Positions 14-63,986 of a stretch of 64,000 nucleotides of DNA are shown here, piece after piece. The stretch is taken from sequence record NZ_CP092111.1; one strand, written 5' to 3'. Positions within the stretch are counted from its first letter, which is position 1; each line of letters starts with the position of its first letter. A program made the position numbers and the translations under genes. The stretch comes from a plasmid. A model generated the notes under the pieces. The model did not search any database. It saw only the letters and a program-made list of their open reading frames with translations, and was not told the DNA's origin.

Positions 14-1669
14 ATGGAGATAAAATATAAAGTTTTACACCTTTTTTGCGGGATTGGCGGTGGCGCATTAGGATTTGACAATGCAAAAGGGGAATATAGA
101 GGGGTTAAGGGCAAATTTGAAACTATTTGTGGCATTGATGTAGATCCTGAAGCATGCGAAGATTTTCGAAATTTAACCGGGCGAAGAATTGAAAAAATGG
201 ATCTCTTCGATAGAGAACAATATATACAATTTCATGGACAGGAGCCCCCAGCTGGGTGGAAAGAGGTTACTCCAAAAATGTTAAGGGATACGGTGCATGA
301 GATACCGGACGTTGTGTTTACAAGTCCGCCGTGTAAAGGATTTAGTGGCCTGCTTCCTGAGAAGTCCGCAAAAACACAAAAATACCAGGCGTTAAACAAA
401 TTAACAGTCAGAAGTATCAAGCTAACGCTAGAGGCTTTTCAGGACGATTTGCCGGCGCTTATCCTACTTGAAAATGTTCCCCGTATTGTGAGCCGCGGAA
501 GAGCATTGCTGCGTGAAATTAAACAGCAACTAGAGTTTTTTGGCTATGTAATTAATGAAGACAAAGATAATTACCATGATTGCGGGGAAATAGGTGGGCT
601 GGCGCAACACAGAAAAAGATTCTTATTGATTGCCAGAAATCCAAATAAATTAGATTCATTTGTTTATCAGCCTCCCAAACAACCAATGAAAACAATAGGT
701 GATGTAATTGGTCCGTTGCCTTTGCCTGGAGACAAACGATTTGGCAAGATTCATGCTTTGCCAAATTTGCAATGGAAAACATGGGTGCGTCTTGCCCTTA
801 TTCCGGCTGGCGGCGACTGGCGGGATTTAGAAAAAATAGATTGGAAAAAGTACCGAATTGGATATTTACCAAGAGCCGGCTGTGGTAAAGTAGCTGAATG
901 GGATAAACCATGTGGAACTATAACCGGGGCCGCAGGTGTAAGTCAAAGTAATAGCACAACTGCAATATCAGATCCGCGGACAGGGTTTAAGTTATCGACT
1001 CATCAGGCAATATACAGGGTTCAAAAATGGGAAGATGCTGGCCGCACTGTTACCGGGGCTATGAGGCCCAATAATGGCGCTTTATGTGTAAATGATCCGC
1101 GGTTGCCTATAAGAAAAAATCGGCATGCTGCCGTTTATCAAGTGGTTAAATGGGAGCAAACGGGGCCTTGTGTGACGGGAACAAGATTTGGGAGTGGAGC
1201 TCCCGCAATTTCCGATCCGCGGTTGGATTGTAAGCCCCGAGCTGGTACGATGGGGGTTCAACGGTGGGATAAACCTTCAAAAACCGTTACCGGGGCAAAC
1301 GATGTTCATGCAGGAACTTCAGCCGTCGCAGATCCGCGCATTCCGGAAGATAATGAGACGGGTGTATTTATTATCATATCTGAAGATGGAACGTGGCACA
1401 GGCCACTAACAACCTTAGAACTTGCTGTTTTACAAGGACTCCCTACGACCTTACCAGACGGAAGACCTCTTATTCTTGCAGGGAAAAGTGATGCAAGATG
1501 GAGGGAAAGGATCGGGAATATGGTTCCGGTAGCTGCCGCACAAGCAATCGCAGAAACCATGCTTAGAACCATGCTTGCTCAAGAAGTAGGCGAATGGCTT
1601 ATGTCAGCTGAAGATATTTGGGTTGTTCCTCTGAAAAGAGAAAATGAAGTTTCTTTTCGGCAATCTTAG
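14..1669 (+). CDS. DNA (cytosine-5)-methyltransferase, orphan (no adjacent restriction enzyme); C-terminal variable region contains 4 tandem ~40-aa repeats
   Basis: C5-MTase motifs seen in translation: FCGIGG (motif I), SPPCKGFS (motif IV, catalytic Cys), ENV (motif VI), QHRKRFLLIAR (VIII), ELAVLQGLP (IX), IGNMVPV (X). Between VIII and IX are repeated modules W[DE]xxxxTVTGx(11)DPR. Confidence 0.85.
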   Translation: MEIKYKVLHLFCGIGGGALGFDNAKGEYRGVKGKFETICGIDVDPEACEDFRNLTGRRIEKMDLFDREQYIQFHGQEPPAGWKEVTPKMLRDTVHEIPDVVFTSPPCKGFSGLLPEKSAKTQKYQALNKLTVRSIKLTLEAFQDDLPALILLENVPRIVSRGRALLREIKQQLEFFGYVINEDKDNYHDCGEIGGLAQHRKRFLLIARNPNKLDSFVYQPPKQPMKTIGDVIGPLPLPGDKRFGKIHALPNLQWKTWVRLALIPAGGDWRDLEKIDWKKYRIGYLPRAGCGKVAEWDKPCGTITGAAGVSQSNSTTAISDPRTGFKLSTHQAIYRVQKWEDAGRTVTGAMRPNNGALCVNDPRLPIRKNRHAAVYQVVKWEQTGPCVTGTRFGSGAPAISDPRLDCKPRAGTMGVQRWDKPSKTVTGANDVHAGTSAVADPRIPEDNETGVFIIISEDGTWHRPLTTLELAVLQGLPTTLPDGRPLILAGKSDARWRERIGNMVPVAAAQAIAETMLRTMLAQEVGEWLMSAEDIWVVPLKRENEVSFRQS

Positions 1670-1689: not shown

Positions 1690-1833
1690 TTCAAAAAAAA
1701 TATATTGAATTATTAGTTTTCAATTGTTATAATAAAAACGAAAGGAGGAAAGAAAAAACTGGATCAGCTGGTAAATAAAAATCAGCCGGCATAAAGCGTA
1801 GCAATCAAAATTTCATACAAAAGGAGATTTAAA
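1690..1833 (+). promoter_or_regulatory. Strong sigmaA-type promoter (TTGAAT-17-TATAAT with TG extension) plus conserved ~100-nt leader; near-identical copy at 4425..4553
   Basis: Direct sequence comparison of 1690-1833 with 4425-4553: conserved blocks tattgaaNtattagttt..aattgttataat, ggaggNaaga, ggtaaatNaaa, ccggcataNgcgtagcNatcaaaatttcaNacaaaaggaga. Confidence 0.5.
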
Positions 1834-3251: not shown

Positions 3252-3932
3252 ATGGCCAGGTTTGCTTTACATCCTAAAACAAATGAAAAAATATCTATAG
3301 AGGATTGGGAGTTATATCATAAAGAGGAAACACCCATATGCATTATTTGTGGACATAATTTATATGTTAGAGCAAACAGTTCCCCTGGTTCTTCAGCTCA
3401 CTTTGCTCACTATCCTGGATCTAATTGTCCATCAATTCAATATAATCGAGAAAAATATGATAGTCTCCAGCCGGTTGAAAAAGACTATCAGAATGCTAAA
3501 AAGTTAAAAAAGCATTTGATCAATAACATGTGGCCAGTTTATCAAAAATGCAAAAGCATATTTGGTCAAGGGTTTAGACAAAAAGATTTTCAAAAAATGA
3601 TTTTAAAAGCGTCTGAAAGAAGTATTTGGTTCTATAAAGGTATGACACTAAAATATTTACCGTATGTTCTGTTAGTAAACTATGGTGTTTTTCAAAAAGA
3701 GGACCATCGAAAAAATAAAGTTTATTTTGTATTTGATTCTAAACTATCAAACTATGAAGATCTGTGGATTAAGCCAAAAATAAAACAAAAAATGTGGAAG
3801 GTATACCCAGAGGAAGGTCAAATTGAGGAAGTCGAGATTGATTTCGATACTTCTTCTTTGTCACCTGAATATTTTTTGTTTTGGGCCACAGGTTTACAAG
3901 GAAAAAAAGAAAATGAATTCTTAGATTGGTAG
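3252..3932 (+). CDS. CoiA-like (competence protein CoiA family) N-terminal zinc-finger/HFAH-motif protein, short form
   Basis: N-terminus CIICGHNLYVRANSSPGSSAHFAHYPGSNC resembles the CoiA signature CxxC...HFAH...C; SD ggagga upstream. Confidence 0.45.
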   Translation: MARFALHPKTNEKISIEDWELYHKEETPICIICGHNLYVRANSSPGSSAHFAHYPGSNCPSIQYNREKYDSLQPVEKDYQNAKKLKKHLINNMWPVYQKCKSIFGQGFRQKDFQKMILKASERSIWFYKGMTLKYLPYVLLVNYGVFQKEDHRKNKVYFVFDSKLSNYEDLWIKPKIKQKMWKVYPEEGQIEEVEIDFDTSSLSPEYFLFWATGLQGKKENEFLDW

Positions 3933-4420: not shown

Positions 4421-4424
4421 ATTG

Positions 4425-4553
4425 AAATATTAGTTTCTAATTGTTATAATGTAATCAAGGAAGGGAGGTAAGAACAAAAACGGTTAGCTTGGTAAATCAA
4501 ACTACCGGCATACGCGTAGCGATCAAAATTTCACACAAAAGGAGACATGTCGA
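4425..4553 (+). promoter_or_regulatory. Second copy of the conserved promoter-leader module (TTGAAA-17-TATAAT)
   Basis: See 1690..1833. Confidence 0.5.
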
Positions 4554-6680: not shown

Positions 6681-7136
6681 ATGAAAAAGTTACTTACTGC
6701 TGTATGCACTCTTCTTCTAATTTCAATTGGAGCTTATGTAACTGGAAATTCGCCAATAGATTTACTATCGCATCACCAAAACACAACTGCAGCTGAAGAA
6801 AATTCAACCTCATATGATCAAAAGATCTATTTTCCTGCTGATAAGTACCCTGAAACCGCTAAACACATAAAAACGGCCATTAAAGAAGGCCATTCGAAAA
6901 TCTGTACAATTGATCGAGATGGTGCCGATGAAAACCGCGAGGAATCTTTGAAGGATGTCCCAACCAAAAAAGGGTATGATCGTGATGAATGGCCAATGGC
7001 AATGTGTCAGGAGGGCGGAGCCGGTGCCGATATTGAATACATAGAGCCATCAGATAACCGCGGGGCGGGATCCTGGGTTTCTCATCAGTTAGATGATTTT
7101 CCAGACGGAACTAGAGTATTATTTGTTGTGAAATAG
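6681..7136 (+). CDS. NucA/NucB-family secreted/membrane-anchored DNase
   Basis: N-terminal signal/anchor; [14 protein letters not shown]...[75 protein letters not shown] closely matches B. subtilis NucB/NucA core from memory. Confidence 0.8.
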
Positions 7137-7247
7137 ATGGAAGAGCAGCTGCTGGCATTTTATTTCGTTCGTGAGTGATCAAAGATCGGAAGATGGCCAT
7201 AATTTCTTGTTCGTGTTTGTTGAATCCAGAATCACTAAAAACAAAGG

Positions 7248-8422
7248 AGATGCTTATGGAATTTATAAAGAGCCTCTTATTCATCGTCTATGCGATCTTG
7301 CTACATGTGTATTCAAAAGATTCAGCCAGCAAACTTCAACGGCATGTCTATAATTTTTTCATCCTTGTCGCTATTGTATGGTTGATTACCTTTAGTTTTT
7401 TTCCGTATTGGAAAATGGTTATTACTTTTAGTTTTTTGGTCGTTAATATCTATGCAGTCAAGACAATATTAACAAAAATCAAAACTGGGAAATTTGTTGC
7501 CCCACCGGCTTGGATTCCCTTGATGACAGTCGCTGGCATTTGTACAGCAGGCATCATTATTCCAAGTTGGGAATCAACGCTAGTCACTGTGGCGTTTGGT
7601 GTTTTTCTATTCAGCATTCTTATCGTTTTAGAAAAGGTGCAGCAGCAGAATGAGATTTACGAAAATCGAAAATCCACTTCCGAGCTAAATGACCGGGAAA
7701 AAATAGTAGAACGGATTAAAAAAGAAAACATCATCCTTGAGCAAAAAAATTCTCATTCACCTAATCTTTATACTTTTGTTCATGAAATAAATGTGGCTGA
7801 CAACAGTGTACTTCGCAACTATATTATTGAGCCCCTTCATCCAGAAACCAGCATCAATAGACAAGCACATTCCTTAGCGCATGAGTTAGGGCATTATTAT
7901 AACTCCATCGAGAGAAAACGTTCCTTCCATAGTTTTATTTTAGATTGTCGTAAAGCGAAAAGACTGAAACCGATTTGCGGATTATTTGTTTTATACGATG
8001 AATGGAGTGCCTGGAATCGCGCAAAGCAAATCTGCCTTGAAGAAGGTGTAGACATTAGCTTTTTTCATTTTTCGAGAAAAACAGCTTTTTCAACTTATGT
8101 TAAAGCATACTGGGAGTCCATCATAAGGCCATTTAAAACATTGATAGGTACGTATATTTTTAGCGTGGCAATCGTGCTGTTTTCTGTGTTGCTAACTGAC
8201 GCAGACATTCACCTTCCTTTTAAATTAGATGCTTTGACAAATTCTATTGCAATTACAACTGATAGGACAGGAGCAGTAAATTTCATTTTCTTCATCATCA
8301 TGCAGATTCGCTTTTTGAGATGGGTGTTTGGACTGTTTTTTAAAAAATCTGTTACAGACTATCAATATGCACCAGAAGATGGTTTTGTAACAACGGGAAA
8401 TGCAAAAAAGATTAAGGACTAA
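7248..8422 (+). CDS. polytopic membrane protein with internal HELGH (HExxH) zinc-metallopeptidase-like motif
   Basis: Multiple hydrophobic helices at N and C termini; LAHELGHYYNS in the central soluble region; SD aaaggag before ATG 7248. Confidence 0.45.
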
Positions 8423-11900: not shown

Positions 11901-12102
11901 TGGTCGCCAGCAGCCAGAAATCTGCTCGGTATATGCGTGTCAATAGGTGCGGGGGTGACTCACATCGCTTGCCCCGTATCTATTGGATAAGTCGACTAAT
12001 CATAATGTTTGTAAAAAAAGAGCGAATGACGGGGATTCACCTTTGATAATGTCAACTGAAAATAAAAGGTAAAGTGTCTTTACCATTGAATTATAAAATG
12101 AG

Positions 12103-12898: not shown

Positions 12899-13927
12899 TC
12901 ATTCAAATACTAAAGACTTTGCGGTTTGAACGAGGCTGCTTATCCCTCTACTATCTGTCAAAGTGAATGGTTTTTCATACTTTTTTGCAAATTCTTTTGC
13001 TTTTTCTGCTGTGGGATGATTGATGTTTAATTTCATAGTGATTAACATGTCACAACTTTTAACCATACTTTCAAGCCGTTTGGTATTTTCATTGCCGTAA
13101 GCATGGATAAGCACTCCTCCGACACTCGTTATTGCTTTTTCAAATTCACTCGTTCTGGTACCACCTAACACTAGTACCTTTTTTCCGTTCAATTCATTTG
13201 TTATTGTGGTATCTAATTTAGGATTTTTAGTTTTATAATGGGAAGAAGGAGAAGGTGGAGCATGTTTGATTTCATCCGTATTATGTTTCCATATCACTTT
13301 GAACACATCTACATTGTCACTGTAATAAGCTATATCAACAACTGAACCGATCTCAAGATCCTCCCTTGTTCTTGTATCGTCATTGATAAGAAAAGTATGT
13401 GGTGCATCATTATATTTTATGGATTTGATTTTTCCATCGTTATCTAAGTATTCAGAGGCAACTAGCATAGAATCGCGATTTGATAGAACACAATAATTTA
13501 ATTGAATTCGGTTTGTTTGCTTGCGTTTTTTGGCCTTTTCTATTAACTCAAAATAAAATTTTTCGTTTCCTAAATGGACTGCTGAAATTAAATCTCCATC
13601 TTCAAATTGTTGTTTTCGTATAATGTTTTCGGGAACATATAAATTAATCTCTTCTATAATTCCTCCTTTTAAAAGTCTTTTAAATTCATAACAATTTATC
13701 TGTTTTGCTTTTTCGTCTGTCTCTTCTAGTTGAATATGTTCCACATCATTTTTTGAGCATGGTTCTAATTCATGTGAAACCGATACTTTTAAAGCAGCTA
13801 AGCTCTTAATAAAATGAAAATAGGTGGATAATTCACCTTCAATTTCTTCCACGTTGTCCAGTGTCAGTTTTTGAATTATCTTTCCCATCTCACAAACGGC
13901 TTCCTGAGCTATATTTTGTCTGTTCAT
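12899..13927 (-). CDS. hypothetical protein with C-terminal DUF2325-like domain; paralog of 63126..63986
   Basis: C-terminus KKVLVLGGTRTSEFEKAITSVGGVLIHAYGNENTKRLESMVKSCDMLITMKLNINHPTAEKAKEFAKKYEKPF recalls the DUF2325 pattern. Family assignment is from memory. Confidence 0.45.
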   Translation of the reverse strand: MNRQNIAQEAVCEMGKIIQKLTLDNVEEIEGELSTYFHFIKSLAALKVSVSHELEPCSKNDVEHIQLEETDEKAKQINCYEFKRLLKGGIIEEINLYVPENIIRKQQFEDGDLISAVHLGNEKFYFELIEKAKKRKQTNRIQLNYCVLSNRDSMLVASEYLDNDGKIKSIKYNDAPHTFLINDDTRTREDLEIGSVVDIAYYSDNVDVFKVIWKHNTDEIKHAPPSPSSHYKTKNPKLDTTITNELNGKKVLVLGGTRTSEFEKAITSVGGVLIHAYGNENTKRLESMVKSCDMLITMKLNINHPTAEKAKEFAKKYEKPFTLTDSRGISSLVQTAKSLVFE

Positions 13928-15343: not shown

Positions 15344-15419
15344 CTCATTTATCTATTCAACCTTATTTTTACTATCCCTTTAAATCCTAATAAAATAGAC
15401 ATATTTGAGTGGTACTCCA

Positions 15420-16210
15420 AAAGAAAACGCCCCCCGTTTACGGGGCGATCGGGAAAGCACTGGCAGCGCCGCGCCATGAAATCTCTGCGGCTCATTGAAG
15501 CTGCGGGGCAGCCGGATTCCGGAGCCGGCCAGGCGCTGGCTTTTTTGTGGGCAGGGCAGGCAACGGGCTGCCCTGGCTGCAGCTGAAGGAGATCCGCGGC
15601 TGTCGGTTCCGATGTGGCGCCGGCAGGAGAGCATCTAAGGCGAGAACGCCCCGCGTTTACGAAGCGATCGGGAATGTACCGGCAGCGCCGCGCCGTGAAA
15701 TCTCCGCGGCTCATTGAAGCTGCGGGGCAACCGGATTCCGGAGCCGGCCAGGCGCTGGCTTTTTTGTGGGCAGGGCAGGCAACGGGCCGCTCTGGCTGCA
15801 GCTGAAGGAGATCCGCGGCTGTCGGTTCCGATGTGGCGCCGGCAGGAGAGCATCTAAGGCGAGAACGCCCCGCGTTTACGAAGCGATCGGGAATGTACCG
15901 GCAGCGCCGCGTCGTGAAATCTCCGCGGCTCATCAAAGCTGCGGGCAACCGGATTCGGGAACCGCCCAGGCGCCGACAGGAGAGCATCTGAAGGCGAAAA
16001 CACCCCGCGTTTACGGAGCGATCAGGGCTGCATCAGAGCGCGCCGCGCCGTAAAATCTCCGCGGCTCATTGAAGCTGCGGGGCAGCCGGATTCCGGAGCC
16101 GGCCAGGCACTGGCTTTTTTGTGGGCAGGGCAGGCAACGGGCTGCCCTGGCTGCGGCTGAAGGAGATCCGCGGCCGTCGGTCCTGATACGGCGCCGGCAG
16201 GACGGGATTA
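15420..16210. repeat. REP-like array, family 1, ~220-bp period, about 3.5 units
   Basis: The block gagaacgccccgcgtttacg recurs at 15641, 15861 and 15986; gccggcttttttgtgggcagggcaggcaacggg recurs likewise. Confidence 0.8.
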
Positions 16211-16319
16211 GCCGTCAATTGCATAAAATAAAATATAGACCAGCAGAAAAAGAGCATATTTAAACCCAATATGCTCTAGTGCTGAACGGAATATAAGTCA
16301 TCTATAAAGGAGGGATGTA

Positions 16320-22378: not shown

Positions 22379-25204
22379 ATGCCTAATCAGCAGAAAAGAC
22401 AAAGGAATATATTGGATGATGTTTTGGACCATTTTTTAGATCACCCTTTACGATTAATCTCTGTAGTAATTTTGATTGGGATTTTCTTTGGATATTGGAA
22501 GTGGGATGTTTTATTAACATCGCTTTCAATTTCAGAGGATGTTTTACATTACTGGTTGAAGACAATCCAACGTTTTGTTTTTTACTTTTTGATTCTTGCC
22601 GCGGTACTTATGGTTTTGAGGAAAATTTTCTATGTGTTAAGGATTCAAAAAAGTTATGAATATGTTCATATACTCCCGCATGCTGATGATGGAGTCTCCG
22701 CAGAAGACTTATCAAATTTAATGAGACGTATTCACGGTTCGAAACGAAAAATTCTTGAGCGGTTATTTTTAGGTCGTGAGTGGTACTCATTTGTTATTTA
22801 TCGCAGTTCTCCAGAAGAGGGTGCGGGATACAACTTTTATCTTGGTGCTGAGAGTTCGCAATTAGAGACTTTGAAAGCAAACTTTAAAAGTGTTTATGGT
22901 AGAATGCAATTTTTTGACGTAGAGGATTTGCCAATACCGAGTAAAAAAGCGGTAGGAGGAAGATTGAAACTACGGAATAACTCTTTGAAGAAATCTCTCC
23001 CATTAAGGCGGTATCGTTCTGATCAGCTATCTGGAATTCTGTCTACAATGGAAAATGAGACTTGGGTACAAGTCGCTTTTAGCCCGAATGACGGATGGCG
23101 TTTAAGAAAAGGCATTCTAAAATTAGAAGAGGAAATCAAAGGGGATCGTAAGGCAAGTGATCAAAGCAGTTTTGAAAAAGAAGAACTAAATAGTTTAAAA
23201 CATCGTTTCTCAGGTAATGAGGTTGCTTTTGATTGCACTGTTTCTATGGCAACAGAACATTATCCAGGAGTTCGAATCATCAAAAATGTTGGAAACACTA
23301 TAAGTTCTATTGCTAATGACACGAACGAATTACGTTATAAAAAGCTAAAACGATCAGTACAATGGTTTCCTACAAATAAGCCGTATCGTATGGTGTGGAC
23401 AGGCAGCGAGTTGGCTAACCTCATTCATATGCCGAATTTTAAAAGTGATCATATGAAGAGTTTGTCGAAACTTATTGCGCATGCGGGGAAAGGAACTGAA
23501 CTTCTCCCTGCTAATGTGTTAAGCAGTCCTGAAGGAATTACGTTTGGTTATCAATACCATCCTTTTGTGAAAAATCGAGAGGTGAAGGTTTCGCCGGATG
23601 TATTGGGGAAACATTGGCTTTTAACTGGTTTAAACGGATCTGGGAAGTCAACATTAATTAATGCTGTTTTGAAAAGTTTTATTGATGGATTTATTGCTAA
23701 CGGGAAGGGGCCAGGTTTTTCTTTTGTTGATCCGGCCATAGAAACTGCTCTTGTTTTACTTAACCAAATTTGCAAAGCGGAGCTGGATGGAAAAGAAATT
23801 GATTGGAGTAAGGTGCATTGGGTTTCATTCAAAAATACTGATTATCCTCCTGCAATGAATCTGCTTCATCGCATGGAAGGAGAATCAGCTGAGTTTGTCA
23901 CTGATATTGTTATGCGGATCATTAGAGAAAACTTTTCTGTTGCTCCTCAAGCTGAAAGGCTGCTTCGAAATTGTATAAAAACCCTTGTGATTGATCCAGA
24001 TGAAACACATACCATCTTAGGTGTGAAACAGCTGATTAATGACGAGGTGTTCCGGATGCGTGTTGTATCTAGGCTTTCGAAAGTTCCAGAAGCATATGAT
24101 TTAGTTGATTTTTGGAATTTTGAAGCCCCTGACTTAATTGAGTTAAGTCGGATTCCTCTTTTTAATCGTTTGGATATTTTCACTTCAAATGACCTATTTA
24201 GACGGATGTTTGGTCAAAAAGAGTTTGCTTTTCCAGTCCGTAAGTGGATGGATGAAGGACATTTTATTTTCTTTGATTTTAGTGGTATGGGGGAGCAAGA
24301 AATCAGCTTAATTGGAAGTAATTTAACATATCTATTCTATCGGGTAGCAGAACAAAGACCTGGACGACCTTTGTTGCATCAATTAACTGTTGATGAAGCA
24401 GCAAAGGTTAAAGCTTCAATATTTCCTTATATTGTGCGAGAAATGAGGAAGAAAGGACTTTCAGCCGGAATTGCAACCCAATCTATTAAAGACCTTCCCG
24501 ATGATTTGCAAAAAGCAATGACAAATGTTCAAGGTAATTTCTTTGTTTGTCGACAAGGACAAGATGATGCAAAGGTAACTACACCGTTTTTCAGGACAAA
24601 AGAGTCCAATCAACCTATCTACTCAGAAAGTTTTTTACAATCACTTCCCGATCGAGTTGCTGTAGTTCGCACTCAAGATAACATAGATGGTGTCGATCAA
24701 ACAGTGACCTGCTTAGTGGAAGTACCTCCTTTGGATCGTTATTTACCTGATGGAACGGTTGCTAACTATAGAAGAGAGGACGAGGTTGCCGCAGCCAATG
24801 CGTGGACATTAGAAAAGGCAAAGGAGCTTTCTTCACAAAATGGTTTCCATTACTCGGAAATTGATTTGATTATAAAAGCTTATCTGAAGGGTGAAGAGTA
24901 TGTTCCGCAAAAAAGAAAAGAAAGTCCGCGGAAATTGAAGGCTCCTATTACTAAACAACCAGAAACCCCTTTGCATCTTATGAGAACAAAAAAAATTCAT
25001 GAGGAACAGATGGAAACTGAGGCAGAAACGATTCCTCTTACACTTCAAAAGAAGGAAGATACTAAACAATTAAATAATCAGAAAGAGCATAAGACAGAAG
25101 AGAGAAGACCCAAAATCGAAGGTGAAACAGAGAATCAAAATTTCTCTACTGGATCAATATTACAAAGGATGAAGGCAAAAGCCGATGATCAAAAGGAGGA
25201 ATAA
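22379..25204 (+). CDS. type IV coupling protein (VirD4/TraG-like ATPase)
   Basis: N-terminal TM helices; Walker A GLNGSGKST; Walker B LTVDEAAK. Large (about 940 aa) with K/E-rich tail. Confidence 0.7.
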   Translation: MPNQQKRQRNILDDVLDHFLDHPLRLISVVILIGIFFGYWKWDVLLTSLSISEDVLHYWLKTIQRFVFYFLILAAVLMVLRKIFYVLRIQKSYEYVHILPHADDGVSAEDLSNLMRRIHGSKRKILERLFLGREWYSFVIYRSSPEEGAGYNFYLGAESSQLETLKANFKSVYGRMQFFDVEDLPIPSKKAVGGRLKLRNNSLKKSLPLRRYRSDQLSGILSTMENETWVQVAFSPNDGWRLRKGILKLEEEIKGDRKASDQSSFEKEELNSLKHRFSGNEVAFDCTVSMATEHYPGVRIIKNVGNTISSIANDTNELRYKKLKRSVQWFPTNKPYRMVWTGSELANLIHMPNFKSDHMKSLSKLIAHAGKGTELLPANVLSSPEGITFGYQYHPFVKNREVKVSPDVLGKHWLLTGLNGSGKSTLINAVLKSFIDGFIANGKGPGFSFVDPAIETALVLLNQICKAELDGKEIDWSKVHWVSFKNTDYPPAMNLLHRMEGESAEFVTDIVMRIIRENFSVAPQAERLLRNCIKTLVIDPDETHTILGVKQLINDEVFRMRVVSRLSKVPEAYDLVDFWNFEAPDLIELSRIPLFNRLDIFTSNDLFRRMFGQKEFAFPVRKWMDEGHFIFFDFSGMGEQEISLIGSNLTYLFYRVAEQRPGRPLLHQLTVDEAAKVKASIFPYIVREMRKKGLSAGIATQSIKDLPDDLQKAMTNVQGNFFVCRQGQDDAKVTTPFFRTKESNQPIYSESFLQSLPDRVAVVRTQDNIDGVDQTVTCLVEVPPLDRYLPDGTVANYRREDEVAAANAWTLEKAKELSSQNGFHYSEIDLIIKAYLKGEEYVPQKRKESPRKLKAPITKQPETPLHLMRTKKIHEEQMETEAETIPLTLQKKEDTKQLNNQKEHKTEERRPKIEGETENQNFSTGSILQRMKAKADDQKEE

Positions 25205-36114: not shown

Positions 36115-36850
36115 GACAGAGCCGGCTGAAAGGAACCGGCTCTTTTTTGCAGCCAGAGAGACAACGGGCCGCCCTGGCAGCTGAAGGAGATCCGCGGCCG
36201 TCGGTTCCGATGCAGCGCCGGCTTTTTTTTGTGTCCTGGCCAAGCCGGGCCGCCCTGATAGCTGAAGGAGATCCGTGGCCGTCGGTTCCGTGCGGTTCCA
36301 GAAGGAGAGCATCTGAAGGAGAAAACGCCCCGCGTTTACGGGGCGATTGGGAAAGCACCGGCAGCGCCGCGCCATGAAATCTCTGCGTCTCATCGAAGCT
36401 GCGGGGCAGCCGGATTCCGGAGCCGATCAGGCGCCGGCTTTTTTTGTGTCCTGGCCAAGCCGGGCCGCTCTGGTAGCTGAAGGAGATCCGCGGCCGTCGG
36501 TTCCGTGCGGTTCCAGAAGGAGAGCATCTGAAGGAGAAAACGCCCCGCGTTTACGGGGCGATTGGGAAAGCACCGGCAGCGCGCCGCGTCGTGAAATCTC
36601 CGCGTCTCATCGAAGCTGCGGGGCAGCCGGATTCCGGAGCCGACCAGGCGCCGGCTTTTTTTGTGTCCTGGCCAAGCCGGGCCGCCCTGGCTGCTGAAGG
36701 AGCTCCGCTCAGACCTTGCAGCTGCATCAGCACATGACGAGTTGCTTAGAGCGAAGAGAGAAAGAGCGCGCCGCGCTTACCATGGTGCTTAGGAGCCGCT
36801 GTAGCTGCAGGTGATCCAGAGCCGATAGAAAGGAACCGGCTCTTTTCACC
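36115..36850. repeat. REP-like array, family 1
   Basis: Same family-1 hairpin blocks as 4140..4420. Confidence 0.8.
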
Positions 36851-45779: not shown

Positions 45780-47440
45780 CAGCTAGCAATCTGAAGGCGA
45801 AAAACGCTTCGCGTTTACGGAGCGATCGGGAGAGTGCTGGATGCGCCTCTCCTATAAAATCTCCGCGACTCATCACAAGTTCGGGAGCAACCGGATTCCG
45901 GAGCCGGCCAGGCGCCGGCTTTTTTGTGGCCAGGTCAGGCAACGGATCGCCCTGGCTGTTGAAGGAGATACGCGGCCGCCGGTCCCGATATGGCGCCTGC
46001 AGGAGAGCATAGAAGGCGAAAACGCTTCGCGTTTACGGGGCGATCTGGTCTGCATGGGCAGCACCGCGCCATGAAATCTCTGTGTCACATCGAAGCTGCG
46101 GGGCAGCCGGATTCCGGAGCCGATCAGGCGCCGGCTTTTTTTGTGTCCTGGCCAGACGGGCCGCCCTGGTAGCTGAAGGAGCTCCGCGGCCGTCGGTTCC
46201 GATGCGGCGCCAGCAGGAGAGCGTCTGAAGGTGAAAACACACCGCGTTTACGGGGCGATCTGGTCTGCACCGGCAGCGCCGCGTCGTGAAATCTCCGCGG
46301 CTCATCGAAGCTGCGGAGGAAACCGGATTCCGGAGCCGGCCAGGTGCCGGCTTTTTTTGTGTCCAGAGCAGGAAACGGGCCGCCCTGGTAGCTGAAGGAG
46401 CTCCGCGGCCGTCGGTTCCGATGCGGCGCCAGCAGGAGAGCGTCTGAAGGTGAAAACACACCGCGTTTACGGGGCGATCTGGTCTGCACCGGCAGCGCCG
46501 CGTCGTGAAATCTCCGCGGCTCATCGAAGCTGCGGAGGAAACCGGATTCCGGAGCCGGCCAGGTGCCGGCTTTTTTTGTGTCCAGAGCAGGAAACGGGCC
46601 GCCCTGGCTGCTGAAGGAGATCCGCGGCCGTCGGTCCCGATATGGCGCCAGCAGGAGAGCATAGAAGGCGAAAACGCCCCGCGTTTACGAAGCGATCGGG
46701 AGTATACCGGCAGCGCCGCATCGTGAAATCTCCGCGGCTCATCGAAGCTGCGGGCAACCGAATTTGGGAACCGGCCAGGCGCAGGCTTTTTTGTGGCCAG
46801 GTCAGGCAACGGATCGCCCTGGCTGCTGAAGGAGATCCGCGGCCGCCGGTCCCGATATGGCGCCAGCAGGAGAGCATCTGAAGGCGAAAACGCCCCGCGT
46901 TTACGGGGCGATCGGGAGAGCATCTGCAGCGCGCCGCGCCATGAAATCTCTGCGGCTCATCGAAGCTGCGGGGGCTGCCAGATTCCGGAGCCGACCAGGC
47001 GCCGGCTTTTTGTGTTCTGGCCAGGACGGAACGCCCTGGCTGCAGCTGAAGGATATCCGCATCCGACGGCCCTAATACGGCGCCAGCAGGAGAGCGTCTG
47101 AAGGCAAAACGCCCCGCGTTTACGGGGCGATCGGGAGAGCATCTGCAGCGCGCCGCGCCATGAAATCTCTGCGGCTCATCGAAGCTGCGGGGGCTGCCAG
47201 ATTCCGGAGCCGACCAGGCGCTGGTTTTTTGTGTCCAGGGCAAGCTACGGGACGCCCTGGTTGCAGCTGAAGGATATCCGCATCCGACGGCCCTAATACG
47301 GCGCCAGCAGGAGAGCGTTGAAGGCAAAACGCCCCGCGTTTACGGGGCGATCAGGGATGCACCGGCAGCGCCGCCTCATGAAATCTCTGCGGCTCATCGA
47401 AGCTGCGGGGCATCCGGATTCCGGAACCGGCCGGTCGCCT
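45780..47440. repeat. Largest REP-like array, family 1 (about 7 units over 1.65 kb)
   Basis: Recurrent gaaaacgccccgcgtttacg, tgaaatctccgcggctcatcgaagctgcgg and gccggctttttttgtgtcc blocks. Confidence 0.85.
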
Positions 47441-47675
47441 GCAAGTTTCTAAAAGCAAAGGTAACTGGTGTCGTTAGCAAGCATGCTTTCATCGTCTGGG
47501 GTTATGAATAGAAGTTGAGAGGATACTGCACAGTGATAAAAAGTATCAAATACCATTTAATTAATTTGAAATCATTTCTCAGGGGTTTACAGGGTAATTG
47601 GAGTGTTGAGCCTGGTATTGCGGTGAAGTTCGGAGGAACATCCTGGGGAGCTGTATTAAGTACCATTTGAGTTTT

Positions 47676-52799: not shown

Positions 52800-53110
52800 A
52801 GGTAATGGGTGTCTTGGCAAAGAACCTGTGACCGTCGGCTCCGATGCGGCGCCGGCAGGAAGATCATCAGCGCAGAAGGCGGAAACGCCCTGTGTCTACG
52901 GAGCGATCAGGAATGCGTCGGCTACGCCTCTTCCATGAATTCTCCCCGGACTATCGCAGACTGCGGGTAGCAGGATTCCGGAACCGGCTAAGTGCCGGTT
53001 TTTTTGTGGCCAGGGCAGGCAACGGGCCGCCCTGGCTGCAGCCAAAGGAATTGTGCGGCCATTAGCCCCGATAGGGAGCCGATATGAGAGTGTCCATGCT
53101 GAGGCGAAAA
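52800..53110. repeat. REP-like elements, family 1
   Basis: Same family-1 hairpin blocks as 4140..4420. Confidence 0.7.
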
Positions 53111-53150
53111 AGCTCTGAGTTTAGGGAGCCAATCAGGAGTGCACCAGCTC

Positions 53151-53633
53151 CTACGACTTCCGTAAATCATTTTTAGAATCACTATTTTTTATTTTCTCTA
53201 ATTCTTCTATAGTGTATGTAGTAACAGGAGCAGCTTGATCACCATCTTTATCCCTCCATCCTTTCCACACTCGTTGATTGTAATTATCTTTTCTTTTTTG
53301 TTCCCATTTTTTTTGTTCCTTGCTAGTACCCGTTGTATACTTACCCTTTTGTGCGAATCTTTTTCTTGCTTTTTCGCTACTCGTGCTAAGTGTTGGTCTT
53401 ACATTATTCATCGAATTCAGTTCTTCCTGTCTAAATCTCATCTTTTTCTCTATAGCTTCAGGAGACTTCGCTCTGGCCCGTTGTTTTTCTCTAATCTCTC
53501 TCCTTTTTCTTTGACTCGGCGTTTCATTTTTTATTTGATTTTCTTCTTTCATTTTAAACCAGCCCCTTCTACCAGGATATTTATGCAAAACTTCAATCAT
53601 TTTTATTATAAACAAATGATATATTTCTCTCAC
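53151..53633 (-). CDS. possible highly basic K/R/E-rich protein (160 aa); uncertain
   Basis: ORF between two REP arrays; an overlapping plus-strand ORF also exists. Confidence 0.3.
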   Translation of the reverse strand: MREIYHLFIIKMIEVLHKYPGRRGWFKMKEENQIKNETPSQRKRREIREKQRARAKSPEAIEKKMRFRQEELNSMNNVRPTLSTSSEKARKRFAQKGKYTTGTSKEQKKWEQKRKDNYNQRVWKGWRDKDGDQAAPVTTYTIEELEKIKNSDSKNDLRKS

Positions 53634-53639
53634 TTATAT

Positions 53640-54890
53640 CTTGCCGTTGGTCCTGATATGGTGCCAGCAGGAAGAACTTCTGCACAGAAAGCCAAAACAC
53701 CCCCGCGTTTACGGGGGGTGATCATGAGTGAACTGGCTGTGGCTTCATCGCAGGCTGCTGAAGGAGCTCCGCGGCCGTTGGCCCTGATATAGCGTCGACA
53801 GGAGAGCGTCTGAAGCACAAAACGCCCCGCGTTTACGGAGCGATCGGGAGAGCACCGGCAGCGCCTCCGCCGTGAAATCTCCGCGGCTCATCGAAACTGC
53901 GAGGCAGCAGGATTCCGGAACCGGCCGGGTGCCGGCTTTTTGTGTCCAGGGCAGGTAACGGGGCGCCCTGGCTGCTGAAGGAGCTCCGCGGCCGTCGGTT
54001 CCGATGCGGCGCCGGCAGGAGAACGTCTGAAGGAGAAAATGCTCCGCGTTTACGCAGCGATCAGGGCTGCACCGGCAGCGCCGCGTCGTGAAATTTCCGC
54101 GCTCATCGAAGTTTCGGGGCAGCAGGATTCCGGCCGGCTAGGTGCCGGCTTTTTGTGTCCAGGCAGGCAACGGGGCGCCCTGGCTGCTGAAGGAGCTCCG
54201 CGGCCGTCGGTTCCGATGCGGCGCCGGCAGGAGAACGTCTGAAGGAGAAAATGCTCCGCGTTTACGCAGCGATCAGGGCTGCACCGGCAGCGCCTCCGCC
54301 GTGAAATCTCCGCGGCTCATCGAAACTGCGAGGCAGCAGGATTCCGGAACCGGCCGGGTGCCGGCTTTTTGTGTCCAGGGCAGGTAACGGGGCGCCCTGG
54401 CTGCTGAAGGAGCTCCGCGGCCGTCGGTTCCGATGCGGCGCCGGTAGGAGAACGTCTGAAGGAGAAAATGCTCCGCGTTTACGCAGCGATCAGGGCTGCA
54501 CCGGCAGCGCCGCGTCGTGAAATTTCCGCGCTCATCGAAGTTTCGGGGAAACAGGCTTCCGGAACCGGCCAGGTGCCGGCTTTTTGTGTCCAGGCAGGCA
54601 ACGGGGCGCCCTGGCTGCTGCGGCCGTCGGCCCGTCAGGAGAGTGTCTGATGTCAAAACGCCCCGCGTTTACGGAGCGATCGGGAGAGCACCGGCAGCGC
54701 CTCCGCCGTGAAATCTCCGCGGCTCATCGAAGTTTCGGGGAAACAGGCTTCCGGAACCGGCCAGGTGCCGGCTTTTTTGTGTCCTGGTCAGGCAACGGGC
54801 CGCCCAGGCTGCAGCTGAAGGAGCTCCGCGGCCGATCGCCTCGATACAATGCCGACAGTACTCCGGAGCCGGTGGTCGGTTAATTTTCAT
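53640..54890. repeat. REP-like array, family 1
   Basis: Same family-1 hairpin blocks as 4140..4420. Confidence 0.8.
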
Positions 54891-60539: not shown

Positions 60540-61260
60540 TTAGTAGCCAGGACGGTCCATTGCCTGCCCTGGACAAAAAAAGCCGGTGCTGGTCGGCTCC
60601 GGAATCCTGGTGCCCCGCAGCTTCGATGAGCCGCAGAGACTTCATGGCGCGGCGCTGCCGGTGCGGCCCTGATCGGCCCCGTAAACGCGGGGCGTTTTCT
60701 CCTTCAGATGCTCTCCTGCTGGCGCCGGATCGGGGCCGACGGCCGCGGAGCTCCTTCAGCAGCCAGGGTGTCCCGTTGCCTGCCCTGGACACAAAAAAGC
60801 CGGCGCCTGGCTGGTTCCGGAATCTGGTGCCCCGCAGCTTCGATGAGCCGCAGAGACTTCATGGCGCGGCGCTGCCGGTGCGGCCCTGATCGGCCCCGTA
60901 AACGCGGGGCGTTTTCTCCTTCAGATGCTCTCCTGCTGGCGCCGGATCGGGGCCGACGGCCGCGGAGCTCCTTCAGCGGTAAAGGGCGTCCCGTTGCCGG
61001 CCACAAAAAAGCCGGCGCCCGGCCGGTTCCGGAATCCGGTTGCCCGCAGCTTCGATGAGCCGCAGAGACTTCATGGCGCGGCGCTGCCCGTGTGGCCCTG
61101 ATCGCCCCGTAAACGCGGGGCGTTTTCTCCTTCAGATGTTGCCCTGCCGACGCCGATCGGACCGACGGCCGCGGATCTCCTTCAGCAGCCAGGGTGTCCC
61201 GTTGCCTGCCCTGGACACAAAAAAGCCGGCGCCTGGCCTGATCTGGAGTCTTGCTGCTCC
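60540..61260. repeat. REP-like array, family 1, opposite orientation
   Basis: Reverse complements of the family-1 blocks (cgtaaacgcggggcgttttc, ccgcagcttcgatgagccgcagagacttcatggcgcgg). Confidence 0.8.
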
Positions 61261-63125: not shown

Positions 63126-63986
63126 TTATGCCTCTACACATAATGATTTTGCGGTTTGAACGAGGCTGCTTATACCCCTGCTGTCCATTAGACGAAAAGG
63201 TTTTTCGTACTTCTTAGCAAATTCTTTGGCTTTTTCAGCTGTGGGATGATTAATATTTAACTTCATCGTAATTAACATATCACAGCCTTTTATCATGCTT
63301 TCAAGCCGTTTCGTATCTTCATTTCCGTAAGCATGGATAAGCTCTCCTCCAATACTTACTATCGCTTTTTCAAATTCTGCTGTTCTTCCCTCTCCACCTA
63401 ATAATAAGACCTTTTTACCTTTCAATTCATTTGTTTCCTTGGTATCCGATTTAGGATTTTTGATTTTATAGTTAGAAGAAGGCAAAGGGGGCACGTGAGG
63501 CGATCCTTCTGTATTATGCTTCCATATCACTTTGAACACATCTATATTGTTACTATAATAAGCAATATCAACAATTGAGCCTACTTCAAGGTCTTCCTTA
63601 ATGCGCGCCTCGTTGTTGATAAGGAAAGTATGTGGAACATCATTATATTTAATCGATTTGATTTTCCCATCCTTATCTAAGTATTCAGAAGCAACCAGCA
63701 TTGAATCTCGCTTTGACAAAATACAATAATTTAATTGAACTCTATTCGTTGGTCTTTGTTCTGCGACTTTTTCAACTAATTCAAAATGATACTTATCGTT
63801 ACCTAAGTGGACTGCTGAAATGAAATCCCCATCTTCCAAACCCAGCTTCCGTATAATATTTTCAGGAACATATAAATCAATCTCTTCTAAATACCCTCCT
63901 TTTAACTGCCTTTTTAATTCATAGCGATTTTTACTCTTTGGTTTTGTTTCCTCTTCTGACGGAGTATTTTCCGGAACATCTTCCAA
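63126..63986 (-). CDS. DUF2325-like domain protein, paralog of 12899..13927; 5' end may lie beyond the window
   Basis: About 85% nucleotide identity over the C-terminal 600 bp with 12899-13500. Confidence 0.45.
   Translation of the reverse strand: MEDVPENTPSEEETKPKSKNRYELKRQLKGGYLEEIDLYVPENIIRKLGLEDGDFISAVHLGNDKYHFELVEKVAEQRPTNRVQLNYCILSKRDSMLVASEYLDKDGKIKSIKYNDVPHTFLINNEARIKEDLEVGSIVDIAYYSNNIDVFKVIWKHNTEGSPHVPPLPSSNYKIKNPKSDTKETNELKGKKVLLLGGEGRTAEFEKAIVSIGGELIHAYGNEDTKRLESMIKGCDMLITMKLNINHPTAEKAKEFAKKYEKPFRLMDSRGISSLVQTAKSLCVEA

Follow-up and report, generated by a model that had tools for sequence, protein, structure and literature searches.

A plasmid-borne orphan C5-cytosine methyltransferase with a tandem array of candidate target-recognition cassettes

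Why would a plasmid-encoded C5-cytosine DNA methyltransferase carry four related modules where ordinary enzymes of this kind have a single recognition segment? The question is raised by an orphan methyltransferase gene at positions 14..1669 (551 aa) of a 64,000-nucleotide stretch of plasmid DNA (NZ_CP092111.1), referred to below as the window. The gene lies on the + strand, as do all of its features described here. We consider it moderately likely that its product is an orphan, multispecific anti-restriction methylase with alternative recognition cassettes, protecting the plasmid.

By its motifs and predicted fold, the gene is an intact C5-cytosine methyltransferase. The open reading frame matches Pfam PF00145 (E 1e-22, spanning aa 5-216 of the 551-aa protein) and TIGR00675 (E 5e-16), and >7260 homologues of the protein were found. 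A Foldseek search with the AF2 model matched DNMT1, MET1, and M.HaeIII (1dct) at E values of 1e-11 to 1e-13. An earlier, sequence-only reading of this DNA had reported all ten C5-methyltransferase motifs; of these, motifs I, IV, VI, VIII, IX, and X were located here by visual inspection and with the help of columns that are invariant among 121 aligned sequences. The catalytic core with motifs I-VIII (14..661; aa 1-216) is marked by such columns and was modeled by AF2 with pLDDT >90. Motif I, the AdoMet-binding motif, reads LFCGIGGG (aa 10-17), with G13, G15, and G16 nearly invariant. Motif IV, PPCKGFS (aa 105-111, nt 326-346), contains the catalytic Cys107, and its residues P106, C107, K108, G109, and S111 are invariant across the 121 sequences; most C5-methyltransferases have Q at the position of this K. 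Invariant in the same alignment are E153, N154, and V155 of motif VI (ENV; aa 153-155, nt 470-478), Q198 and R202 of motif VIII (QHRKR; aa 198-202, nt 605-619), H462, R463, P464, E469, and Q474 of motif IX (HRPLTTLELAVLQG; aa 462-475, nt 1397-1438), and G501, V504, and P505 of motif X (GNMVP; aa 501-505, nt 1514-1528). Motifs VI, VIII, IX, and X follow one another in the canonical order.

Between the core and the repeats lies a helical region (662..856; aa 217-281) that includes LQWKTWVRLALIPAGGDWRDL, is common to all family members, and is near-invariant in columns 247-272 of the 121-sequence alignment; AF2 assigned its helices a pLDDT of 66-93. The repeats are followed by a segment (1340..1666) composed of a hairpin (VFIIISEDGTW), motifs IX and X, and the C-terminal tail, which has invariant residues and a predicted pLDDT of 77-97.

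The array itself occupies aa 282-442 (nt 857-1339), between motifs VIII and IX, where four modules, each roughly 40 aa long and closed by DPR, follow one another in the order V-B-C-A. Module 1 belongs to type V, a first-position type, and includes AGCGKVAEWDKPCGTITGAAGVSQSNSTTAISDPR (aa 282-322, nt 857-979; module HMM E 9e-11). It is followed by module 2 of type B, TGFKLSTHQAIYRVQKWEDAGRTVTGAMRPNNGALCVNDPR (aa 323-363, nt 980-1102; E 8e-20), module 3 of type C, LPIRKNRHAAVYQVVKWEQTGPCVTGTRFGSGAPAISDPR (aa 364-403, nt 1103-1222; E 5e-18), and module 4 of type A, the near-universal last module, LDCKPRAGTMGVQRWDKPSKTVTGANDVHAGTSAVADPR (aa 404-442, nt 1223-1339). The family module HMM matched all four, with E values of 1e-10 to 1e-19, and local alignments of all six module pairs scored 5.6-15.9 standard deviations above 2000 shuffles. 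The four tandem repeats described in the sequence-only reading are thereby confirmed. The interval between motifs VIII and IX, given there as about 300 aa, is in fact about 259 aa long, and the proposed module pattern holds for four related modules except that its T[VI]TG element is loose in the third (WEQTGPCVTG).

All cassettes have the scaffold aromatic-x-V-x2-W-x2-P-x2-T-[VI]-T-G...D-P-R. Columns D39, P40, and R41 of the module HMM are invariant, and W17, T23, and G26 are nearly so. Type-specific residues flank the T-[VI] dipeptide on both sides (HMM columns 3-11, 15, 27-31, and 35), and these columns are rich in R/K/H/N/Q/S/T (45%, compared with 31% in the core). The module region as a whole is basic (pI 9.8) and poor in hydrophobic residues, and 54% of its residues are small or turn-forming. 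Since only short conserved motifs are repeated among the modules at the DNA level, the modules are old paralogues, and recent tandem duplication was excluded as the origin of the array. Serial duplication of one TRD, which had been suggested from the sequence alone, is wrong for this gene: the four modules are distinct family-wide types, kept where the cores are only ~60% identical.

What, then, do the modules correspond to in other enzymes? Profile and BLASTP matches identify them as homologues of the core of the TL-motif TRD in ordinary C5-methyltransferases, in agreement with their earlier placement in the target-recognition region. M_MAGs_10 and M_MAGs_51 are experimentally validated monospecific C5-methyltransferases (PMC11954522). 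The module HMM matched both of them with 18-20 bits (conditional E of about 2e-7), in the TL-motif region only. BLASTP against M_MAGs_10 produced one alignment that ran from the N-terminal core through the pre-module region into module V, which was paired with the TL segment (E 1e-10), and a second one in which module A and then motifs IX-X were paired with the TL segment and motifs IX-X (E 1e-3). Module C was likewise aligned with the TL segment of M_MAGs_10 (E 0.014).

The overall layout is shared as well. The pre-TRD 'GG-W-RD' region, TL segment, and motifs IX-X of M_MAGs_10-type enzymes all align with the window protein, and monospecific enzymes of the form ..PGGxWRDW.. / VYGRMxWDKPSPTITT..G..HPxxxR / motif IX have their elements in the same order, with a ..PGGTWRDW.. 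region that resembles the window protein's pre-module region (aa 217-281). There is one TL segment in M_MAGs_10/M_MAGs_51-type enzymes as opposed to four in the window protein, and the TL loop is followed by H-P in monospecific enzymes but by D-P-R in the window family. The published TL consensus, (YFW)X(RK)X5P(STCA)PT(ILV)(TASV)X5-16H(PFYWL), as quoted in PMC2413257, was matched in its strict form by none of 677 family modules; the departures are V instead of R/K at position 2, P-x-x-T for P-x-P-T, and D-P for H-P. The TL register aromatic(0)-P/A(8)-T(11)-[ILV](12), on the other hand, was found in 359 of the 677 modules, compared with 4.2 in shuffled sequences. The DNA-reading residues of TRDs have been placed at the same position as the type-specific columns of the modules (PMC2413257). 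Because no other TL segment is found between motifs VIII and IX, the array replaces this indispensable element. Among PDB sequences, the module profile found no solved C5-methyltransferase, giving chance matches to fatty-acid-binding proteins at E of about 1, and the full-length protein gave marginal matches only.

AF2 assigned the cassettes low confidence. In the AF2 model of the full protein, pLDDT was <50 across the array (aa 281-440), and a single module predicted from a 79-sequence alignment reached 59.6 and was devoid of secondary structure. Confidence was still <50 for modules C and A, where the input alignment was type-consistent (97 of 120 and 116 of 120 rows, respectively); misalignment is thus not the cause in these two modules. 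Predicted disorder of the repeat region, which the sequence-only reading had named as grounds against its own proposal, is formally what was found for aa 281-440. We do not take the low confidence as a refutation because of the strong type-specific purifying selection described below and the homology to the TL segment; the sequence evidence argues for a functional region that would become ordered on DNA binding.

We evaluated how the modules are distributed across the family. Members of the clade occur in Bacillota and Proteobacteria, where plasmids, prophages, and phages carry them; they have 1-11 modules each, and essentially all complete members possess the module region. The 121 closest proteins, which are not phylogenetically independent, display 97 different architectures of 2-9 modules. 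In a core-only search, 150 diverse representatives had 0-11 modules per protein, with a mode of 5. Clustering of 1327 modules at 50% identity yielded 424 clusters, 37 of which had at least five members. A type was repeated within one protein in only 2 of the 121 related proteins, compared with 53.7 +/- 4.4 expected from shuffling of the middle modules, and in 5 of 140 diverse representatives. Part of this lack of repetition could stem from a single long ancestral array whose descendants lost different modules.

Identity within a type, which is bounded from below by the 50% clustering threshold, was 0.64-0.79, as opposed to 0.63-0.82 for the cores of the same protein pairs and 0.37 between types. 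For most types it reached or exceeded the core value; type B, present in 99 of the 121 proteins, had a within-type identity of 0.66 and a core identity of 0.63. Every cassette type is, as judged by this conservation, under purifying selection. Certain types are always found in the first position, and order is conserved for most types (F before B/C before D; L before B/C; N before M), whereas B and C follow each other either way about equally often (38 versus 42). Such positional rules hint at structural constraints: the modules might operate together as a single assembly, or docking might be confined to the terminal one.

A relative of the window gene from B. haynesii (L005) illustrates how an array can change. 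This gene is devoid of exactly module C (V-B-A), the difference being a 120-nt indel with flanks that are ~99% identical. A 12-nt direct repeat, GATCCGCGGTTG, which codes for DPRL, marks the left boundary of the indel at 1094..1105, and a second copy marks the right boundary at 1214..1225; a repeat search of the window found these two copies, with 100% identity. From this one case we infer, as a general rule, that recombination at the conserved DPR-coding junctions adds or removes whole cassettes with exact boundaries. Selection for uniform DPR codons as recombination sites was also considered. In the window gene these codons are uniform, but those of three other loci are heterogeneous, and uniformity is therefore not claimed as a feature of the family.

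Close relatives of the locus are found on other Bacillus plasmids. An 8-kb stretch of the window is 97.6-97.9% identical to plasmids of B. velezensis and B. licheniformis, and 63% of this stretch is matched, at 95% identity, by a B. glycinifermentans plasmid. The region upstream of the methyltransferase gene falls outside the window; on a near-identical plasmid (L001), a promoter-like cassette (TTGAAT-17-TATAAT and a conserved leader) is located upstream of the methyltransferase gene, and this cassette recurs in the window at 1705-1733 and 4422-4450. GC-rich 219-nt repeats are present elsewhere in the window.

The sequence-only reading had viewed the gene as an orphan of a conjugative element, situated at the start of a candidate anti-defense block with no restriction partner nearby, and the context supports the orphan status, the conjugative plasmid, and the position at the head of a block. 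Conjugation genes are present: the window encodes TcpC, a VirB4-like ATPase, a Replic_Relax protein, a hydrolase of the cell wall, and an adhesin together with sortase. The methyltransferase gene heads a co-directional block with RadC/JAB, DUF6075, and NucA/NucB-like genes. No REase family was found among its neighbors in the window, none recurs among 145 immediate neighbors in 76 genomes, and no REase partner was present in the three prophage/phage contexts examined. The ORF at 3252-3932 was considered as a hidden restriction partner; its weak CoiA_N/DUF7830 matches were below the threshold, and it was dropped because it matched no nuclease family and had no comparable gene in the three prophage/phage contexts.

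Across the family, which is represented in about 500 species-representative genomes and occurs in prophages, phages, and 159 PLSDB plasmids, many of them from Pseudomonas and Burkholderia, the commonest neighbors are other orphan methylases, PAPS reductase, and SNF2 proteins; ArdC was found once. In phage loci, the gene sits in replication and recombination modules. In plasmids of the pLS20 family, C5-methyltransferases have been counted as putative establishment genes; genes of this class follow a conserved establishment-gene regulatory sequence, EGeRS1 or EGeRS2, and their expression is transient once the plasmid has been transferred (PMC8708921).

The nearest functional parallel comes from multispecific phage enzymes. 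For M.SPRI, M.Phi3TI, M.Rho11sI, and M.H2I of temperate Bacillus phages, Trautner and colleagues reportedly showed the specificity of each unit by experiment; in such enzymes, one specificity is lost when a unit is deleted. Like the window enzyme, these are orphans on Bacillus mobile elements. Like the family, they combine one core with tandem units of ~40-47 aa between motifs VIII and IX, each unit has a Y...T-[LIV]-T core, and unit types are shared in different combinations. The remark in the sequence-only reading that their modules are not obviously repeats of each other does not hold, since a unit Y-x3-G-x3-T-L-T recurs at aa 281, 328, and 369 of the rho11s and H2 enzymes. The arrays of TRDs used by Bacillus phages are presumed to protect against several restriction systems (PMC12707154).

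Direct comparison revealed no close relationship: BLASTP of the window protein against the rho11s enzyme gave no significant similarity (E 0.058 and 0.22), and the module HMM was not significant against the SPR, rho11s, and H2 enzymes (E >0.01 in a 3-sequence search). Motif IV contains PCK in the window family and PCQ in the phage enzymes. The spacing from the aromatic residue to T is 11 in the family, as in most monospecific enzymes, compared with 8 in the phage enzymes, and the invariant DPR at unit boundaries is likewise unlike them. Arrays reach 11 units as opposed to 3-4, and the repertoire, with dozens of frequent types and hundreds of clusters, is much larger. The clade also extends to plasmids and phages of Bacillota and Proteobacteria, unlike the Bacillus-phage enzymes. 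Independent specificity of the units is experimental in the phage enzymes, whereas for the window family we infer it, with indirect support from the non-redundant types, the type-specific conservation, and the clean unit indels. The best reading of these likenesses and differences is that the family would work like SPR/rho11s-type enzymes but belongs to a separate clade.

Another multispecific enzyme, M.BssHII of Bacillus (Geobacillus) stearothermophilus H3, recognizes about five targets. The enzyme was reportedly described by Schumann et al. in 1996 (J Mol Biol 257:949; cited in PMC4081073). Like the window enzyme, it is a non-SPbeta C5-methyltransferase from a Bacillota host; if it belongs to the window clade, the family already has one characterized member. 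Orphan methyltransferases of plasmid leading and establishment regions (leading regions are surveyed in PMC11541004) resemble the window gene in having no REase partner, in their anti-defense-type neighbors, and in their presumed role in protecting entry. M.EcoGIX and M.BceJIII are plasmid orphan N6-adenine methylases with relaxed or single-strand specificity (PMC7736820). In the window C5 enzyme, breadth would come from many discrete recognition cassettes.

In the window enzyme, four non-identical ~40-aa cassettes, V-B-C-A, have taken the place of the single TL segment of ordinary C5-methyltransferases. We propose that these cassettes are alternative target-recognition units. On DNA they would dock singly with the shared catalytic core, each reading its own short sequence and offering the cytosine to be methylated. 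A single polypeptide would on this model methylate several unrelated sites, in the window enzyme probably as many as four. Such pre-emptive or early methylation would shield the plasmid from several host restriction systems during its transfer and establishment, a strategy known from the multispecific methylases of phages SPR, phi3T, rho11s, and H2, and the multi-cassette design of the family probably guards its carriers against a large number of restriction enzymes simultaneously. To the broader proposal of a clade of 'cassette-array' C5-methyltransferases, with self-contained readers of short sequences that come in hundreds of types, number 2-11 per core, and are swapped whole by recombination at their junctions, we give about even chances.

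Several features of the array could be accommodated by other explanations. Type A closes the array in 115 of the 118 cases in which it occurs, arrays of distant members likewise finish with A-like types, and minimal family members retain an A-like module. These observations would fit a terminal type A cassette that alone is a working TRD, with the upstream cassettes acting as a flexible, basic DNA tether or sliding arm, or as a spacer, to increase affinity or processivity, and with one or a relaxed specificity; the basic, hydrophobic-poor composition and low predicted confidence of the array point the same way. We nevertheless find this unlikely, since a generic tether needs no dozens of conserved types with residues flanking T-[VI] and would not avoid repeats of a type (2 of 121 against about 54 expected). 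Modules V and C, moreover, match the monospecific TL segment just as A does. A joint action of the cassettes as one extended reader or programmable array, directed at one long composite site or at spaced half-sites, would account for the largely conserved module order and the existence of first- and last-position types, but it is made very improbable by the free order of B and C, by arrays that span 1 to 11 units, and by the clean deletion of a cassette in the near-identical B. haynesii gene. A long composite site would also be a poor protection against ordinary 4-6 bp restriction sites, and each cassette holds a whole TL-type segment, which is sufficient in monospecific enzymes. We find it hardly credible that the repeats are a non-functional, low-complexity or disordered insertion tolerated by the enzyme. 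The low AF2 confidence and the abundance of small or turn-forming residues agree with such an insertion, yet its conservation within types is at least that of the catalytic core in most of them, D39, P40, and R41 are invariant with W17, T23, and G26 nearly so, and the region is found in essentially every complete member, in the place of the indispensable TL segment.

A different kind of doubt concerns the purpose of methylation, which might mainly be epigenetic regulation, the marking of self DNA for replication or packaging, or attack on hosts via methyl-dependent (Type IV) systems. Orphan methylases can be regulatory (PMC12707154, PMC11602122), and the location of phage copies in replication and recombination modules is compatible with such roles. 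Regulation, however, predicts one conserved specificity and not 97 architectures in 121 proteins. The neighbors in the family are often other orphan methylases and in one case ArdC, and the window gene heads a block with RadC/JAB and establishment-type genes of the kind described in PMC8708921. A main role other than anti-restriction is in our estimate distinctly unlikely, and multispecific protection by alternative cassettes is the reading that we prefer.

Among the papers covered by a full-text search, none described the window clade or of DPR-delimited TRD repeats, and this large family on plasmids and phages has apparently been undescribed so far. If its cassettes are independent, the multispecific principle would extend from a few Bacillus phage enzymes studied in the 1980s-90s to a widespread clade with far larger arrays. 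If true, the enzymes of this clade would surpass all known DNA methyltransferases in multispecificity and would represent a natural plug-and-play library in which short peptide cassettes correspond to DNA targets. The regular 40-aa format of the cassettes, with DPR as delimiter, and the existence of natural variants one cassette apart would then offer an unusually clean route to cassette-target mapping, and designer multispecific methylases could be built. Routine SMRT methylomes cover m5C motifs poorly; hence, with independent cassettes, the family could account for m5C motifs that are presently unexplained. Should the cassettes not be independent, their conserved, non-redundant types would still need another explanation. 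If they are, plasmids and phages could gain cover against many restriction systems simultaneously from a single small enzyme, and this would help explain how these elements cross host barriers.

The window opens with a C5-methyltransferase gene (14..1669, positive strand) encoding a protein of 551 aa. The product matches PF00145 over aa 5 to 216 (Pfam; E = 1e-22) and TIGR00675 (E = 5e-16). From the protein sequence and the columns that are invariant in an alignment of 121 sequences, we assigned motifs I (LFCGIGGG), IV (PPCKGFS, containing Cys107), VI (ENV), VIII (QHRKR), IX (HRPLTTLELAVLQG), and X (GNMVP). AlphaFold2, supplied with the same alignment, modeled the core with a pLDDT of >90, and the model matched DNMT1, MET1, and M.HaeIII in Foldseek at E values of 1e-11 to 1e-13. 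Motif IV reads P-C-Q in most C5-methyltransferases; here it reads P-C-K (Cys107-Lys108, window 332-337), and the lysine is invariant among the 121 family members.

Between motifs VIII and IX, aa 282 to 442 (nucleotides 857 to 1339) consist of four consecutive units of 39 to 41 residues, each with W-x5-T-[VI]-T-G inside and Asp-Pro-Arg at its end. All six pairwise alignments of the units scored 5.6 to 15.9 standard deviations over shuffled controls, in agreement with the sequence-only reading of four tandem related modules in the recognition region; the interval between the two motifs, which that reading put at about 300 aa, is actually about 259 aa. At the DNA level, repetition within the gene is limited to short conserved motifs, and the protein scores are high; thus, the repeat is real but old. 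The region formed by the units has a basic pI of 9.8 and few hydrophobic residues (22% versus 33 to 35%). At all four DPR junctions (971-979, 1094-1102, 1214-1222, and 1331-1339), the codons are GAT-CCG-CG[G/C], and the junction DNA includes a CCGCGG site. In the rest of the gene, arginine is mostly encoded by AGA (15 of 35) and proline by CCG in 8 of 34 cases, and the DPR codons are mixed in three other family genes (loci L006 to L008). The uniform codons may reflect junction homogenization or the recombination history within this plasmid lineage.

A database search returned more than 7,260 homologues. The best 120 ranged from 473 to 766 aa in increments of about 40, and a 41-column unit HMM, in which a unit runs from the residue after one DPR through the next DPR, found 2 to 9 units in every one of the 121 closest proteins. 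The array is therefore a family trait rather than a peculiarity of the window gene. Clustered at 50% identity, the 677 units of these proteins fell into about 20 frequent discrete types, which were combined in 97 different architectures; that of the window enzyme is V-B-C-A. Type A, with the consensus LgCxPRsGtmGVQxWdePakTViGaGDiHaGaaAVADPR, occurred 118 times, 115 of them as the last unit; nine types were found essentially only at the first position, and the internal types included B, C, D, F, H, J, L, M, N, and P. Searching 1.84 billion representative proteins with the core alone (aa 1 to 281) delineated a distinct clade, with 782 matches at E ≤ 1e-3 and 337 at E ≤ 1e-30. The best 150 of these matches carried 0 to 11 units (mode, 5), with at least two in nearly every complete member. 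The 1,327 units of the 270 pooled proteins formed 424 clusters at the same 50% cutoff, and 37 of these had at least five members. Seven proteins (P0127, P0128, P0140, P0145, P0159, P0212, and P0252) are 830 to 1,200 aa long, and their methylase core begins near residue 470 to 510; the large N-terminal fusion may represent a further methylase or a domain of the polyvalent-protein kind.

Ordinary C5-methyltransferases carry a single TL recognition segment between motifs VIII and IX. A published consensus for the TL motif of their recognition domains, quoted in PMC2413257, is (YFW)X(RK)X5P(STCA)PT(ILV)(TASV)X5-16H(PFYWL); according to that paper, DNA is read by residues flanking the T-L dipeptide on both sides. 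The units follow the register of this consensus (aromatic at 0, P/A at 8, T at 11, and I/V at 12), with D-P in place of H-P 12 to 14 residues further on. None of the 677 units matched the strict consensus; 359 matched the register alone, compared to 4 in shuffled sequences. In M_MAGs_10 and M_MAGs_51, experimentally validated monospecific enzymes whose sequences are printed in PMC11954522, the unit HMM hit exactly the TL segment YPSVYGRMEWDKPSPTITT (18 to 20 bits; conditional E of about 2e-7). BLASTP of the window protein against M_MAGs_10 aligned this one segment three times: with unit V at the end of an HSP spanning the whole N-terminal core (E = 1e-10), with unit A at the start of an HSP that extends over motifs IX and X (E = 1e-3), and with unit C (E = 0.014). 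Multiplication of the single TL segment of an ordinary enzyme would be expected to produce such a pattern. The four cassettes of the window enzyme differ from one another, and all are homologous to the TL recognition segment. Positions V14, W17, T23, V24, G26, and D39-P40-R41 are universal among units. Those conserved within a type and varying between types (columns 3 to 11, 15, 27 to 31, and 35) flank the T-V dipeptide on either side and are enriched in R, K, H, N, Q, S, and T (45% versus 31% in the core).

Only 2 of the 121 proteins repeated a type, compared to 53.7 ± 4.4 when internal units were shuffled among proteins; among diverse representatives, 5 of 140 did so. Some of this non-redundancy could be due to the common ancestry of the proteins, with units lost differentially from a long ancestral array. 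In pairs of proteins sharing a type, within-unit identity was 0.64 to 0.79, with a floor set by the 50% clustering threshold, and in most types it equaled or exceeded that of the catalytic core (0.63 to 0.82); identity between types was 0.37. The order of types is partly fixed, with B and C found in either order about equally (38 versus 42). The closest named relative, a Bacillus haynesii protein with the architecture V-B-A, is 86% identical overall, and the DNA of its gene differs from that of the window gene by 120 nt, an indel matching unit C exactly, between flanks about 99% identical. A 12-nt direct repeat, GATCCGCGGTTG (window 1094-1105 and 1214-1225), flanks the indel. One clean cassette indel therefore separates two near-identical genes. 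The main rival explanation, that the terminal cassette alone is a true target-recognition domain and the others assist DNA binding, seems improbable to us. By these comparisons, the cassettes are under type-specific purifying selection and non-redundant within a protein.

AlphaFold2 argued against an autonomous fold of each repeat as a separate TRD-like unit. The array (aa 281 to 440) had a pLDDT of <50 and almost no secondary structure, and a lone unit predicted from a 79-unit alignment reached only 59.6 and lacked secondary structure. Misalignment does not fully account for the low confidence, since 97 and 116 of the 120 rows, respectively, had the same type in the columns under units C and A. 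The array may be flexible and rich in loops and become ordered upon contact with DNA and the core; such flexibility might be expected of several cassettes competing for a single docking site. We regard the low-confidence prediction as a genuine weakness of the cassette model.

The Bacillus phage methylases SPR, phi3T, rho11s, and H2, cited in PMC12707154 as having multiple TRDs arrayed in one polypeptide, serve as the functional model. Their modules had been held not to be obvious repeats of each other; repetition is nevertheless plain to see, and in rho11s and H2, Y-x3-G-x3-T-L-T recurs at aa 281, 328, and 369. The window enzyme falls outside their clade: BLASTP gave an E value of 0.058, the unit HMM had no significant match in SPR, rho11s, or H2, the aromatic-to-T spacing differs by three residues, and the phage enzymes have PCQ rather than PCK in motif IV. 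It would thus resemble them in function while belonging to a separate clade, one that is much larger and has longer and more regular arrays. Our sequence comparison covered SPR, rho11s, and H2. M.BssHII of Bacillus stearothermophilus, cited as multispecific in PMC4081073, would be a characterized member of the family if it belongs to the clade. We found no description of this clade in the open-access full text searched.

The first 8 kb of the window are 97.6 to 97.9% identical to plasmids of Bacillus velezensis and Bacillus licheniformis, and a Bacillus glycinifermentans plasmid is 95% identical over 63% of them. Genes for TcpC, a VirB4-like AAA_10 ATPase, and Replic_Relax bear out the proposed conjugative element; an NlpC/P60-SLT hydrolase and a thioester adhesin with sortase are also encoded. 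The methylase is followed on the same strand by small genes without assigned function, RadC/JAB, DUF6075, and a NucA/NucB-like gene. No nuclease partner was detectable among the window neighbors, as the claim of orphan status had it. On this conjugative plasmid, the C5-methyltransferase gene is thus intact and an orphan, and its product is predicted to methylate DNA. In plasmids of the pLS20 family, the putative establishment genes are reported to include one for a C5- or N6-methylase or for ArdC, and their regulatory sequences (EGeRS1) are 400 to 600 bp long and GC-rich, with many inverted repeats (PMC8708921). GC-rich intergenic arrays of a ~219-nt repeat, in many copies at 60 to 100% identity (15400-16215, 36244-36708, 45801-47543, 52882-54873, and 60576-61251), may, by description, correspond to EGeRS1.

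A promoter-like cassette (TTGAAT, 17 nt with TG, TATAAT) occurs before the methylase (11907-11935 in the near-identical plasmid L001), the next gene (window 1705-1733), and radC (window 4422-4450), which suggests a small co-regulated regulon; the first two copies have a common conserved leader, CCGGCATAAAGCGTAGCAAT... Two copies of a DUF2325 gene (12899-13927 and 63126-63986, both on the negative strand) are 79 to 82% identical in DNA; one is divergent, just upstream of the methylase block, an arrangement that recurs in L001 and in the B. haynesii locus L005. The 226-aa product of 3252-3932 (positive strand), conserved in the B. haynesii plasmid, has a Cys/His-rich region and weak, sub-threshold N-terminal matches to DUF7830 and CoiA_N, with nothing among its domain matches marking it as a nuclease. 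In L001, a gene annotated as the RNA chaperone Hfq (22571-22822) lies downstream of the methylase block.

Family members occur in prophage early regions of Brevibacillus and Paenibacillus, on one metagenomic phage contig, and in the sequenced phages phiCTX and H66 (Pseudomonas), PS3 (Marinobacter), and PBC5 (Sinorhizobium). PLSDB held them on 159 plasmids (91 from Pseudomonas, 17 from Roseomonas, and 15 from Burkholderia), 63 of which were typed conjugative, and a scan of one genome per species confirmed 508 loci. Among 145 immediate neighbors in 76 of these genomes, no restriction endonuclease family recurred; D12 N6-adenine methylases (8), SNF2 (5), PAPS reductase (5), and N6_N4 methylases (3) were commonest. 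The frequent PAPS-reductase-domain genes, one of them at 6874-8004 of locus L007, and adenine methylases of the D12 or N6_N4 type (11 of the 145) suggest small DNA-modification gene islands on phages and plasmids. Full-length members with 43 to 51% identity, found in Thermoplasmatales archaeon (L038) and Actinomycetes (L059) MAGs, could represent real mobile-element transfer or a binning artifact. Taken together, the enzymes form a widespread mobile-element family that combines TL-type cassettes. We lean, with moderate confidence, toward an explanation in which each cassette would recognize its own DNA target, one cassette would engage at a time, and the enzyme would protect its element from restriction at multiple targets.
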